Assembly: GCA_964387845.1 (NCBI GenBank)
Contig: CAYLXA010000008.1
Span: 44,270 to 108,269 of the forward strand
Length of the DNA stretch: 64,000 nucleotides
Source: an uncultured bacterium
GTDB taxonomy: Bacteria; Omnitrophota; Omnitrophia; Omnitrophales; Abzuiibacteriaceae
Reading direction: 5' to 3'
Part shown: positions 29,401-35,400 of the stretch, piece by piece
How positions within the stretch are numbered: the first letter of the stretch is position 1
Layout: the number at the start of each line of letters is the position of its first letter
The notes under the pieces: generated by a model
Database searches by the model: none
What the model was told of the DNA's origin: nothing
The model's input: only the letters and a program-made list of their open reading frames with translations
Translations under genes and position numbers: made by a program

Positions 29401-32400
29401 GGAAGGAACCGAAGTGCAGGCACTCTACGGAGGCACGGTGGTTTCCGTATTTCAAGACGACATGCAGAGCACCCTTGTTGTCAATCAAGAGATTACCGAT
29501 ACAGACGGAGGAAATACGCTGGTCACCATTTATGCGCACATAGAGCCGGAAACTAACGTTCAGCCGGGCGTAAAAATTGAGGCTGGCGATGTCCTGGGCC
29601 GAATCAGGCGGTCGCGCAATGAGCGTTCGATTGTTTCGCCTCATCTTCACTTATCGATCGGATGGGCAAAGCCCGAATTTTTTGAACGTCTCAAAAGCGA
29701 CGGCGTCGATTGGCCGTTTGTGGATGCTTTGGCAAAAGAAGGCCTTCTGACTTATGTCGATCCGCTTACATTTTTGGATAAAAATGAAGCCGATCATTTT
29801 TTTATGAATGCCCAGCACAACAAATTAAAGAAAATTCTGATTCTAAATACACAGCCAGGCGCTCAATTTTTTCTGACCCGGCAAGTGATTGAAAAACAAT
29901 TTCCCGGTGTCACGACACTCGCTGTAAGAAGTTTTGAAGAAGCGCAGAAAATTTTAAATGACCCGTCCAGCGAAATTGATGCGGTAGTCCGTGTTGACGA
30001 ATCGGCATCAATCAGTTTCCCTAGAAAATATTTAAAACGCACGGCCGTTTTAGATTATCAAGAAAAAAACAAAAGAGAATTCTTACGCCAACTGCATGTC
30101 GTGAATGTGATCGGCCGCTTGTATCACGAACCGATCAGCCGTCTCAACATTCGCTACCGGCTTCAGCGGCGCATCCGTCAGGCGGGAATCCGGACAGTGG
30201 GGCAATTGGTTGACCTTGCCAACCTGCCGAAGAAATTTCGAAAGTTTACAACGGGCCTTTCTAAAGTTCCGGAGGGCCTTGAGCGCCGTTTGCAAGGCTC
30301 TCGCTACAAGGATGAGATCATCCGCGCAATCGTCTCTGTCCAGCCCCAGGCCATTCTGACACGCTCCATTTTGCACAGGCGGTCGCTTGGATTTTTCCAA
30401 ATGGCGTACCGACTCACATTTGGATTTGAATACCATCCCGAGACGCGCAATTTTGCGGAGCTGATTTTATTCTTAAATGGTTTATCCGGCAGTGTTTTCA
30501 AAGAGCTGGTCAAACAATTTGACGTCCATATTCAAACCGATTTAATCGATATTTTGCAGCGTGTTGCTCGGATTGCGCCCGAAGCCATTTCTGTCAACGT
30601 TCTGGAGATGTTTATCGATGACGAAGAGACTCCCAAGCGCATGCGCGAAAATTTCAATACCCTGGCAGATTTAATTCACATGGCAAGGAATGATACCAAA
30701 CGGTTTAAGGAGATTTTTGGATATCAAATTTCATGGCATGTTTTGCTCTTGCTTCTTGAAATTCTTTACGATGCGGTTCCGGGAGAAATCATGTGGCAGG
30801 AATGGCCTGACCTTGTCCACACCGTTCTGAATCCGCACAATCTTCCACGCACATTCGGCAGCGGCGGGTTAAGCGGGCATATCAACGCTTACTCAGCGGC
30901 CATTCAAGCACATTGGCGCCGGTTGATGGCGGAGCATAAGGGATATGCAAAAAGAAAAGACCGCTCAGAACTTCGGCAGGCGGGAGATCGGCAAATTTTC
31001 CAGAGGGCATTTCAGGGAATTGCTTTCGGTGGATATGGAGCGGGGCTTATTGCTGCGACTTGGCAGATGCTTACCGTTTATCCGCAAATGTTGAGGCCGT
31101 CCTTATTTGTGATTCTGCTTACCTGGAATTTCTATCAGATCGTGAAACTAATTCTCAAGCAGCCGTTTGTCAGTCAGGAAAAGATAAACCAAGAAAAGTA
31201 TATTAACCGCCAACTTATCATTACCCATTTGCCGCAGCTTGGACTCATCAAGGCGCACATGCTAGCACCGTGGCTTGAGGCTTTTATGCAAGCGCCGGAA
31301 GTTGGGGCCTTGTTTTTGACGGTCTCCGGTTTGCTGGTTTCAAAATTGGCCTTTGACAGCTATCTGCGCAATGACGGCAGAGCATCGGGAAGGTCCGAAT
31401 TGCGCACCAATGACCCGGAAGAGCCGAATGCCAAAAATCCACGCACGTCTACTTACGAGACTATTATCTCTAACCGCCCGCAAATGAACCCAACTGAAAG
31501 TAATACTGAACAAGCAAGCCTGTTCATGGCACCGCTTGAAAACGTAACACCGGATGCGGTCCGGTGGCTTGACCGAGTGTTTAATAGCCGGCTTCCGAAG
31601 GGCCAGTATGTTTTTGTCGGTGTTGTTGTCGATCGCAAAAGCAAAGACATCCAGGCTTTTCAGGATGGCGTTTACATGATTGCAAAATTTCTGGAAGTCG
31701 GCGGCGCATTTGAAGAAATCGGATTGAACGAGATCAAAAATAAAAAACTTCGCCGCAGAATCACGGCCGTCGGCAAAGGATCGTCGGTGCGCGTGATCGA
31801 ATTTGCGAGTGTCGGCGGGGGCGATGATTATGAAATTCCGCTGCGCCGCCTTCAGGGTGTAGTGGAAGATTATTACAGCAATGAACCGATTGTCTGGATC
31901 CCGATATCACCGGAAGGAGAACTTTCAAGCACATTGGGCTGGAAGCCCAAAAACCGGGCTTTTCATTTGACGTTAGTGCATCAGGCACCGGAGCAAGAGC
32001 CGGAGGCGCGCTCTGAGCTTCGCAATGATGGTGGAATTATTCTTGAAGCCGGACAGCAAATCAAAGCGGTTGAAGGTTATCAAATGCAGCTTCAAGAAAA
32101 CGGTAGCGTTGCATTTTACCGTGAACGGTTAAGCAGCCCTGAGCCGGACCCTGTTGAGGTAGTCAAACCCACCATGGCCGGCATGCCTGTTTATGATGAA
32201 GCAGGCAATATCATGGGCTATGTTGGCATCACACATGACTTTGAAGGCCAAGGGGAAGATAGAAAATTAATTGCAAGAACCGCATTTTATCCGGAGCCTG
32301 AATTTGATATTGAGAAAACGCATGTGCCGTCTACATGGCCTGCTTGGGAGCTGCTCAAGGCGGTTGGGCTTTTGATTCCAAAAGAGGACGCGCATATTCT

Positions 32401-35400
32401 AAAAATTGAAGACATCAGCCAAACATCTGATTCAAAAATTCACCGGATTACGGTGCGCGTACCGGAAGAGCAGAGTTTTCCGCTTCGCGGTATTGAAATT
32501 CTAGCACGCGAATTAATTGAGAATCCATCCGCTGAACAGCAGTTTGATCTTGTTTACAATGAGAAAGGACATTTGTTGGCTGTATTTCCCGTTTTTGGAA
32601 ATGAAAATAGGGCCGCTGCGGAGGATGGCTTATTTCTTGATGTCAGTCCGTACTATTTTGAAGTTCCGAAGGACATTCGAGGAGAGTCGAAACTCCTGAT
32701 AGATCAATTTTTGCGCGAGTGGAGACAAAACCAACAGCATATCCAAGCCTATCAAAAAAAGCATTTCGGTTCTAATCGGATGAATTTCTGGCATTTTAGT
32801 TATAACAATGACGAAAATAATGATGAAGATAATAAAGAGGAGCCTCTTTATCAGTTTTATCATTTACTTCATAGTCACGGCCATGATCTTAGTTATTTGG
32901 GGGAAGTTGAAGTTCAATCTTTGGAGCATATTTTTTACTACGTTAGTAAAGATCCGGATAGGAAAATGTTATTGTTACCAATTTTCCCAACGGTCTTCCC
33001 GCCATCCGGCGATCCCCAGCACGACACGGAATATCATAAGGCTATTTTGATCGATCCCAGATTTGATTTAAATGAGAATCAGCGGACTCTTGTGGTAGGT
33101 TCCGGAAGCGGATTTGACACATGGCTTGTTTCCCTCAAAACACGCAAGACCGTGAGTGTAATTGACATTAATCCACTGGCGGTAGCCAACACAAAAGCGC
33201 TTGCGAAAATTGCAGGCTTCAAAGTTTTAGCTAGAACGGCTGACAATATCGTCGATGAAAGCGGAAAGCCCACTTTTCCAGATGCCCGGTTTGATCGAAT
33301 TATTTGGAATATGCCCGAGCATGTTGAAGGTGATGGGCCCAGCCACGGGCAATTAGCAACCCAAAGGACCAAGTGGTATTTAACAGATCATTGGGATGGC
33401 GACGTCGATGGTTTCAGCTTGACCCGGTTTGCTTCAGGGCTTTGCGACATTTTAAATCCTGACTCGCGCGTTTTAATTTGGAATTCGAATAACGAAGATT
33501 CAATTTTGAATGCCTTTGAAAACCGCGGCATGGAAGTTGAACGTGCAGGCCTCAATTATCGGTACAGTTTGTATTTTATTCAACCATCTGCCGCTGCAGG
33601 CGAGCTTTTGGAACCGATTTCTAACTCTGCAGATCAACGAAGCGAACCTCAAAAACACATTGCCGTGCTTCAACGGTTCAAGCACAATCCGACCGGATTT
33701 ATGGGGTGGCTCAAGAACGAAATCGCCGAAGTTTTGACAATCATTGACATGCCGAGCGGTCAGTTTATGAAACTGCCTGATGCGGAAAGAAGGAAGAAAA
33801 ATCAACGTATTGAAAACGCAATTTCCATGCTTTACGGCGTAGAAGATTTTATTTCGGCTAAAGATGCGGCAAAAATTATCAAGAATATTGACGAGGCACG
33901 CCGCATGTTGGACGAGATTTACCAAATGTCCGAATGGCGTAAAAATGATTTTTCCGCTATCCGCGGAGGGAAGCAAGATTCCAAACTTCCGGCAAGCACC
34001 GAGCAAGCGTGGCACGCACGGGATATTTTTAACGAATTTCTTCCGAAAAATGGGCTAGGAGAAGCGCTTCAGAAATACACGGGGGATAAAAAAGTATTGG
34101 ATACCGCAGCGGAGAAATGGCTGCCTGTTTTTACGCGCGTTCCGAAACATTTATTCATGCCGAAATATTTGCGGCAGGATGCTTATTTGCATGATGCGCC
34201 GTACCGAATCGGTTATGGCCAGACAATCTCACAACCGTCTCTGGTTGCATTTATTCTGGCGCTGCTTGATTTAGAGCCCTCGGATGAAGTTTTGGAAGTC
34301 GGCGCAGGCAGCGGATGGTTGGCCGCGCTGATGTCGCAGCAAGCGGCGCATGTCTATGCGACAGAACTCATTCCGCAGCTTGCGGGCCGTGCGGAGCGGG
34401 TGATTGAGAATATGGGAATTCAAAATGTCAGCATTGTTGAAGCCGATGGTTCGGTTGGTTATCCACAGGCGGCTCCGTTCGATAAAATCGTCGTTTCAGC
34501 CGGCAGCCCCAATGTTCCGGAACTGCTTGTGAACCAGCTCCGCGAAGGAGGCTTGCTGATCATTCCGGTTTTGGATCCTGCAGCGTCAAAAAAGCAGAAG
34601 TCTTACAAGCTGACATTATTTGTGAAAGAAGGCGGTAAATTGACAGAAAAACTTGCCATCGATAGGGTTAATTTTGTTGATCTGCGCGGTGTGCACGGTT
34701 GGCAGCCGGCGCCAAAACGTTCCGAGCTTCGCCGAGCCGCACAGCCGAAAGATTCAAACAGTGAAAAATCAACGCCGAAGCCCGAGACCGAGTCAGACCG
34801 GCGCATCATCCGGGCAGTTAATTATTTTCTGAAAGAAAAGAGGCCATTCAATCAAGGCGATATCGCCAAAAAAGCAAGAGTCAGCTTGCAAACGGTTACA
34901 AACCGGAAGCACGCAAATCCGTCGATCGCTCGGTTTGTTGATTGGGCCCTGGAGAAAGCGCCTAAGGCTGAGCCTAAATCCGTTCAAGCTCTAATCCGGG
35001 CCGCAAAGCAGTTGAAAAAAGAAGGAAAATCGGGCGTGACCAATTCAGTTGTTGCGGACCTAGCCGGTTATCATCCACAAACCGTTACCAGCATAAGCAA
35101 GTTATATCCTAAGGTAAAACAAGCTGTGCAGGGGGCGCGTCAATCTCCGCACGCACAGATTTCTCCCACGATTCAGAAAGTTGTGGATGTTATTAAAGCG
35201 GCCGCGAAGAAAAAACAAGTGTTTCAAAACGAAGGCCAAATCGCGCAAGCAGCCGAAATCAGGCCTGAAACGTTGAGCCGGATTAAGAAGCGGCGGTCCT
35301 CCTATCGGGAACCATTTCTCCAACTGCTTCAATACGCCGTAAGCGACCCGGACCGTGCGCTTGAGATCATTAAAAAACACTTCTCGATTCATTCCGAACA

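Follow-up and report, generated by a model that had tools for sequence, protein, structure and literature searches.

Why should a protein with a signal-peptide-like N-terminus and putative transmembrane (TM) helices also carry folds of the kind that bind DNA? The question is raised by a 64,000-nucleotide stretch of DNA (hereafter the window; contig CAYLXA010000008.1 of assembly GCA_964387845.1, positions 44,270 to 108,269) from a member of the Omnitrophota, a group of uncultivated, possibly predatory nanobacteria. The original prediction, drawn from window positions 30130-35290, placed a helix-hairpin-helix (HhH) domain like the C-terminal domain of the RNA polymerase alpha subunit (alpha-CTD) and three tandem helix-turn-helix (HTH) units in one exported membrane protein. 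This interval falls wholly within a single giant open reading frame (ORF), and the four peptides quoted in support are all in frame there. The giant protein is modular and membrane-associated, with about 19 modules divided by pentapeptides of the form [RK][SGA]EL[RK]. Its best explanation, which we hold with modest confidence, is that a tandem HTH array binds nucleic acid and is either held at, or freed from, the membrane-embedded giant protein. HTH domains are among the best-known folds; what is new here is a tandem-array family that no Pfam or NCBIfam model covers, located inside large membrane-associated or signal-bearing proteins. Features of the locus are summarized in Table 1.

The giant ORF is not an artefact of fused genes or of a reassigned stop codon, because all 5,181 codons are open in the standard code and the public NCBI assembly holds an identical protein. 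The locus is also present in a Logan contig of run SRR15237813. The GltB protein encoded in the window shares 81% and 79% identity with those of two Candidatus Omnitrophota metagenome-assembled genomes (MAGs), the top matches among GTDB species representatives, and the window is therefore assigned to the Omnitrophota.

Three tandem HTH domains in a giant protein

The three HTH domains are genuine, as regards their fold, their membership of a repeat family, their basic charge and the boundaries of the module that holds them. The peptides first read as HTH units are GDIAKKARVSLQTVTNRK (aa 3804-3821, nt 34856-34909), VTNSVV...SISK (aa 3864-3885, nt 35036-35101) and QNEGQ...RIKK (aa 3927-3948, nt 35225-35290), and each runs from helix 2 through the turn into helix 3 within a longer unit of about 52 residues. 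An AlphaFold2 model of aa 3775-3972, run with a 22-row alignment, has a predicted local distance difference test score (pLDDT) of 91.4 and a predicted template modelling score (pTM) of 0.61, and shows four helices per unit, of about 16, 7, 10 and 13 residues. In unit 1 the predicted helices lie at aa 3782-3797, 3803-3809, 3814-3823 and 3825-3837. Each unit folds independently, as a core like that of the LacI headpiece and TetR_N preceded by an extra N-terminal helix. All three units are detected by the hidden Markov model (HMM) of the repeat family described below, unit 3 being the most divergent of them, and profile comparison with PDB likewise returns HTH domains. The predicted row of three consecutive HTH units is thus borne out by structure prediction and by the family profile alike. 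No other soluble module of the giant protein is as basic as the HTH module, and the array within the latter has a net charge of +23 and an isoelectric point (pI) of 10.7.

Table 1. Coordinates of the features discussed (window positions in nucleotides; residues are those of the giant protein unless another protein is named)
Feature	Position	Residues	Strand	Remarks
Giant ORF	23447..38992		+	5,181 aa; GTG start; gene of 15.5 kb
Signal-peptide-like N-terminus	23447..23530	1-28	+	MRKK, hydrophobic core, TIAYS
TrmB-like (tRNA m7G46-type) S-adenosylmethionine (SAM) methyltransferase	27470..27856	1342-1470	+	Pfam Methyltransf_4 1.2e-12; PDB TrmB chains 4.7e-6
Peptidase M23	29396..29662	1984-2072	+	Pfam 6.1e-10
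Candidate alpha-CTD-like / HhH stretch	30122..30316	2226-2290	+	pI 11.4; net charge +11
Hydrophobic cluster C	31016..31354	2524-2636	+	about 3 putative TM helices
Protein-L-isoaspartate O-methyltransferase (PCMT)	34112..34705	3556-3753	+	Pfam 2.9e-46; PDB 1jg1 2.7e-33
RSELR upstream of HTH module	34718..34732	3758-3762	+	
HTH module	34721..35443	3759-3999	+	pI 10.3; net charge +22
HTH unit 1	34793..34945	3783-3833	+	family HMM E 3.4e-18; AlphaFold pLDDT 96-98
HTH unit 2	34979..35134	3845-3896	+	family HMM E 1e-13; AlphaFold
HTH unit 3	35168..35311	3908-3955	+	family HMM E 2.7e-10; AlphaFold pLDDT 82-95
RSELR downstream of HTH module	35441..35455	3999-4003	+	
Hydrophobic cluster D	35483..35794	4013-4031, 4052-4070, 4098-4116	+	3 putative TM helices
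[RK][SGA]EL[RK] sites		243, 584, 788, 1512, 1854, 2506, 2649, 2855, 3758, 3999, 4173, 4237, 4258, 4960, 5005, 5066		
Second large protein	48732..53426		+	1,564 aa; signal-like N-terminus, hydrophobic cluster
GARLA copies in P0014		578, 1006, 1677, 2148, 2614 of P0014		

A rare family of tandem HTH repeats

An exhaustive HMMER search of 1.84 billion representative proteins with the HTH module recovered 13 relatives (E 1.5e-14 to 4e-4), and local iteration of a unit HMM resolved 73 units of about 52 residues over 14 proteins, in arrays of two to eight. At 14 clusters among 1.84 billion representative proteins, the family is extremely rare. Where the source record of a member gives an organism (P0002, P0006, P0011 and P0013, with the cluster member P0015), this is always Candidatus Omnitrophota, and the family appears to be previously undescribed and found so far only in this lineage. 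A word-indexed search of 5.8 billion proteins gave no match with the HTH module, with the alpha-CTD region or with the 69-unit alignment of the family, and thus did not recover even the giant protein. These negatives do not amount to absence for the lineage, because the giant protein and its 13 relatives are present in a 15-billion-protein collection.

The unit consensus is xDxKILxAIxxLKxxGxxITQxxIAxxAGVSxxTVSxRKxxNPxIxxAIE. When the 69-unit profile is compared with all PDB sequences, the best matches are CcpA (6.2e-5), TetR (1.4e-4) and LacI (1.5e-4), with sigma factors and further repressors behind them. Apart from a small number of designed or unnamed chains, all are HTH DNA-binding domains, and the alignments coincide exactly with their helix-turn-helix. 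Pfam votes taken unit by unit are spread over HTH_24 (25 of 69), TetR_N (23), LacI (19) and AsnC-type HTH (18). Summed over whole arrays, the relatives exceed the Pfam cut-offs for TetR_N, LacI, HTH_24 and HTH_6, for example TetR_N with 47.7 bits against a cut-off of 24 for the array of P0006, and LacI with 39 against 27 for that of P0004. The part of the consensus that reads ITQxxIAxxAGVSxxTVSxRKxxNP matches the CcpA headpiece column by column, and the N-terminal helix is placed as in TetR_N. With a three-helix core, a tight turn before the recognition helix and significant profile similarity, the family fits the HTH superfamily by fold and profile, and it belongs to no curated family.

A conserved T and basic residues in the recognition helix are further features shared with LacI, CcpA and TetR. 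Among its polar positions the family best conserves a T near the start of helix 3 and, at the end of that helix, an R-K(-K) cluster followed by N-P; the basic cluster occupies columns 50-53 of the family alignment. Unlike these repressors, the family has no ligand-binding or dimerisation domain, its units run head to tail within proteins of 450-5,500 aa, many of them with TM helices or a signal-like N-terminus, its single units score below Pfam cut-offs, and its DNA binding is predicted. The nearest architectural analogy is to the eukaryotic Myb R1R2R3 region, in which three imperfect tandem HTH repeats of about 52 residues, joined by short linkers, act jointly on DNA. There is no sequence relationship to Myb and no conserved tryptophan core, and the protein described here is a bacterial membrane protein.

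The large relatives measure 5,502, 4,679, 2,910, 2,614, 2,422 and 2,401 aa. The giant protein shares with its relatives only the HTH array, plus the TrmB-like module in the case of P0006, indicating that these large proteins are mosaics. Partner modules of the array include mTERF (9e-19), sigma-70 region 4 and TrmB in P0006, a Fis-type HTH in P0009 and a nucleotidyltransferase in P0012. The surroundings of the array are equally varied. P0005 is a stand-alone version in which five units stand between a signal-like N-terminus and C-terminal hydrophobic helices; the N-terminus of P0014 has a twin-arginine-like signal (RRSFL); P0003 and P0008 have a two-helix hairpin anchor just ahead of the array, and judged from this order their arrays, on the N-terminal side, are presumably cytoplasmic. 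In P0002 a strongly positive segment links the last helix to the array, and a signal is lacking altogether in P0006 and P0010. P0006 (2,614 aa, MBP7056111.1, from a Candidatus Omnitrophota MAG) has a Walker-A-like N-terminus and five HTH units, and is unusually nucleic-acid-centred.

The alpha-CTD-like stretch

The fourth peptide, ISRLNIRY...QLVDL (aa 2230-2257, nt 30134-30217), had been read as an alpha-CTD-type HhH, and here the prediction was not confirmed. The Pfam model RNA_pol_A_CTD (PF03118), whose gathering cut-off is 23.8 bits, reaches 14.3 bits (E 0.035) in a 652-aa segment and 13.0 bits (E 0.09) for a 96-aa piece, with a match that spans only profile positions 11-42 of 67, or about 32 residues. 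The unrelated family CheR_N scores equally on the stretch, and with about 18 segments scanned, some 0.6 chance matches of this strength are expected. There is no match in PDB by phmmer (E up to 10) and no BLASTP alignment with the E. coli alpha-CTD (RpoA residues 245-329; E up to 100). With aa 1855-2506 as the query, genome and metagenome contigs yielded no relatives, and tblastn of the alpha-CTD-like piece against phages gave no match. Because no homologue was found, AlphaFold could be run on this stretch only as a single sequence; its pLDDT of 46.5 is an unusably low confidence.

It is doubtful that aa 2226-2290 form a true alpha-CTD-type (HhH)2 DNA-binding domain which, together with a degenerate receiver-like domain ahead of it, would make up a response-regulator-like module. 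Some observations do point that way: RNA_pol_A_CTD is among the top weak Pfam matches and is in register with the first HhH, the stretch is strongly basic (Table 1), and the helices of the low-confidence model sit at the places of the alpha-CTD helices with a spacing compatible with HhH. Smith-Waterman alignment also sets AGIRTVGQL opposite the alpha-CTD hairpin (the shared pattern being AGI.T.G.L), with a score of 35 and z = 2.6 that is reached by 2.4% of shuffles. Against these stand the sub-threshold scores and the failure of any search to find homologues, which leaves the domain without support from conservation. The stretch is best described as helical and basic, resembling the alpha-CTD at the level of a motif only; it is a lead and not a finding, and it is not a demonstrated HhH domain. 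An HhH fold that works outside the cytoplasm is known from ComEA, the membrane-anchored exported DNA receptor of competence systems; the giant protein has no HHH_3 or ComEA signal in Pfam, and the HhH call here is unconfirmed. Just upstream, aa 2105-2225 (about 29760-30120; KKILILNTQ...AVRSFEEAQKIL...IDAVVRVD) give the impression of a degenerate CheY-like receiver without the acidic pocket; the Pfam family Response_reg has no match on it, even at E up to 1. The wider idea that nucleic-acid-type folds occur in a membrane-associated protein consequently stands for the HTH units and lacks confirmation for the alpha-CTD-like segment.

Membrane association and proposed function of the array

The N-terminal sequence MRKKPFFIKAIALALCFTFIATDTIAYS is signal-like, with a hydropathy peak at aa 7-25 (Kyte-Doolittle 1.8). 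Taking a 19-mer with a Kyte-Doolittle mean of at least 1.5 as a hydrophobic segment, the giant protein has at least 11 of them, in four clusters at aa 168-222, 1557-1738, 2524-2636 and 4013-4116. The first helix of cluster C (aa 2524-2545), identified from the sequence itself, is below this threshold. Cluster C separates the region of the M23 peptidase and the alpha-CTD-like stretch from that of the methyltransferase, PCMT and HTH modules, and cluster D comes right after the HTH module. A membrane protein with export is thus plausible from these features, as originally proposed; the side of the membrane that each module faces is another matter. By counts under the positive-inside rule, the methyltransferase-rich region 1 is cytoplasmic; the same counts place M23 inside and the HTH and PCMT modules outside, an arrangement that is biochemically implausible. 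We rejected this topology as self-contradictory. The puzzle arises because the M23 peptidase is intact, with both catalytic motifs present (HTGID, of the form HxxxD, at aa 1966 and HLH, of the form HxH, at aa 2066), and shares a polypeptide with SAM-dependent enzymes that should need the cytoplasm.

Nucleic-acid binding by the array is plausible because of its charge of +23, the conserved basic cluster of the family and the nucleic-acid-related partner modules of the relatives. Binding and proteolytic release are inferences, as is any side of the membrane assigned to the array. In the reading we favour, the third helix of each unit would be the recognition helix; the conserved T, R, K(K) and N-P would make backbone contacts, with variable positions lying between them; and the array, as beads on a string, would bind double-stranded nucleic acid by avidity. 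It may keep DNA tethered to the giant protein in the membrane, or alternatively become a free DNA-binding fragment if the RSELR junctions that flank it were cleaved.

Several observations weigh against this reading. The three units of the window, taken alone, remain under every Pfam HTH gathering score (E 0.004-0.02). They are the most divergent units of the family, at 30-55 bits compared with 60-80 for the others, and a Foldseek search with the three-unit model gave nothing significant (E above 0.2). Among all units of the family, 31% are not net-positive. HTH folds also serve protein-protein contacts. The signal-like N-termini of several members (P0005, P0014) would put the HTH array outside the cytoplasm, and it is not obvious what sequence-specific DNA binding would do there. 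In the giant protein, the positive-inside rule at the helix that follows the array indicates a non-cytoplasmic side, while the SAM-dependent enzymes beside it favour a cytoplasmic location.

Some of the same facts would suit an array of structural or protein-protein interaction repeats that keep the HTH fold, no longer bind nucleic acid and act as a spacer or docking platform inside the giant protein. The net charge of single units ranges from -6 to +10 across the family, arrays follow signal-like N-termini in several members, the pTM of only 0.61 is that of flexible beads on a string, and the remainder of these proteins is mostly uncharacterised. We nevertheless regard such a role as unlikely. 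The polar positions that are best conserved, the T and the R-K-K at the end of helix 3, are the ones that HTH proteins use for DNA backbone contacts; the array of the giant protein is extremely basic; and the modules that co-occur with the array in the relatives are related to nucleic acids.

Pentapeptides at the module junctions

The modules of the giant protein are separated by a recurrent pentapeptide. The pattern [RK][SGA]EL[RK] occurs 16 times, compared with 0.11 expected from shuffled sequences (maximum of two in 2,000 shuffles), and exact RSELR occurs nine times compared with 0.0099 expected; the looser variants QSELR, RSELL and LSELR add few more copies. All of the [RK][SGA]EL[RK] sites lie between modules, and known domains have their natural ends at such sites. 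The codons of RSELR vary synonymously at every position, indicating that the constraint is on the peptide and not on the DNA, and RSELR was for this reason rejected as a DNA-level repeat or recombination site. Two of the copies bracket the HTH module.

The pentapeptide is used by more than one protein of the genome, because a second large protein in the window, which has no Pfam family, contains two in-frame copies of RSELR where modules appear to meet, one at aa 626-630 (SELR core from nt 50610) and one at aa 1286-1290 (SELR core from nt 52590). An out-of-frame RSELR (nt 52172) and [SGA]ELR (nt 8135 and 55890) were considered as signs of frameshifts and rejected, as each is either outside any ORF or out of frame, and about 0.14 exact matches of this kind are expected by chance. 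A different pentapeptide has the same place in another genome. In P0014 (2,910 aa; locus L082 1521-10253 of a Joint Genome Institute (JGI) metagenome), GARLA occurs five times compared with 0.01 expected, again with varying codons, and it brackets the HTH array, one copy lying 8 residues ahead of it. A literature search for RSELR matched only the software name varSelRF.

On this sequence evidence RSELR and GARLA are candidate processing sites in Omnitrophota giant proteins, with a docking or sorting role equally open. The junctions, which the original prediction did not include, give its idea of release into another compartment a concrete, testable form: the giant protein would be cut at RSELR by a lineage-specific protease, and the HTH array, perhaps with the alpha-CTD-like piece, would be released and act outside the cytoplasm of the producer, on extracellular DNA or on the DNA of a prey or host cell. 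A recurrent short site at every module junction, as a polyprotein should have, is present. The sites also coincide with the natural ends of domains as large as whole proteins, it is the peptide that is under selection, both the second signal-bearing large protein and P0014 show equivalent junctions, and the array exists as a stand-alone signal-bearing protein in P0005. Cleavage of the Omnitrophota giants has been suspected, with the cleavage points stated to be unknown (West-Roberts et al., 10.1101/2023.11.21.568195).

We still consider such cutting improbable for the giant protein. It contains no protease domain of matching specificity, M23 being its only peptidase, and no candidate processing protease was identified among the proteins of the window. 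Four large relatives (P0002, P0006, P0011 and P0012) as well as P0013 have no enriched junction motif. The flanks of the motif are barely more linker-like than the rest of the protein, with a fraction of disorder-promoting residues of 0.62 compared with the protein average of 0.56, and the motif may instead be a docking or sorting signal. The nearest precedent is that of the MARTX toxins, proteins of 3,500-5,300 aa with strings of unrelated effector modules that are freed by cleavage at short linker sites. MARTX toxins have their own cysteine protease domain, RTX repeats and cleavage after Leu. The size and the module string are alike, and the release envisaged here would resemble that of MARTX effectors; the MARTX protease domain, repeats and cleavage sites are absent from the giant protein, and cleavage at RSELR is hypothetical. 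Less likely again is the general proposition that large multi-module proteins of Omnitrophota are true polyproteins, cleaved at lineage-specific pentapeptides into modules such as the HTH array that act separately, some of them outside the producer.

Whether Omnitrophota giant proteins are cut is an open question, which the occurrence of one junction pentapeptide in two proteins of the same genome makes directly testable. If they are, the pentapeptides would supply the missing cleavage points, and the arrays would form a new class of secreted multi-HTH DNA binders, acting for example on the nucleic acids of prey or host. The junction motif is in addition a rational guide to where such proteins may be divided into modules that are to be expressed or whose structure is to be predicted.

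Comparison with the giant proteins of Omnitrophota

Archaeovorin-type giants of the Omnitrophota exceed 30,000 aa, with genes above 90 kb, and combine an N-terminal signal-like region with many TM helices amid enzyme modules such as methyltransferases and peptidases (10.1101/2023.11.21.568195). Their domain set includes glycosyltransferases, glycoside hydrolases, NUDIX, SecA-like domains and C39 and S8 peptidases; their topology is likewise ambiguous, and their processing is suspected and undocumented (10.1101/2023.11.21.568195). The giant protein resembles them in coming from an Omnitrophota genome and in having a signal-like N-terminus and four hydrophobic clusters interspersed with methyltransferase, M23 and PCMT modules. 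It differs from them in size, at 5,181 aa and 15.5 kb, and in domain set, being limited to methyltransferases and M23: no glycosyltransferase, glycoside hydrolase, NUDIX, SecA-like, C39 or S8 domain is found in it by Pfam at E up to 1. HTH arrays and recurrent junction motifs go unmentioned both in 10.1101/2023.11.21.568195 and in a 2026 preprint on long Omnitrophota proteins.

Other modules of the giant protein and the rest of the window

The PCMT alignment to PDB 1jg1 runs to residue 228 of 235, and the natural C-terminus of this domain lies 5 residues upstream of the RSELR at aa 3758. The TrmB-like domain begins about 10 residues downstream of a junction motif. Both are whole, protein-sized enzymes embedded as modules, and the position of their termini near junctions is as expected if once-separate genes had been fused. 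Two further, weaker signals of SAM methyltransferases are present in the giant protein. In the C-terminal part, aa 4341-4545 (36467-37060) contain five copies of F-Y-[ND]-x-x-G-[KS], spaced 35-75 residues apart, a pattern that suggests beta-propeller-like repeats; Pfam gives weak hints only (DUF5711, E 0.014; MORN_2, E 0.15). The rest of the window is an ordinary diderm chromosome, encoding acetyl-CoA synthetase, a MacB/MFP/OEP efflux system, IspH, GltB, HemA, PanB, FolD and histidine kinases.

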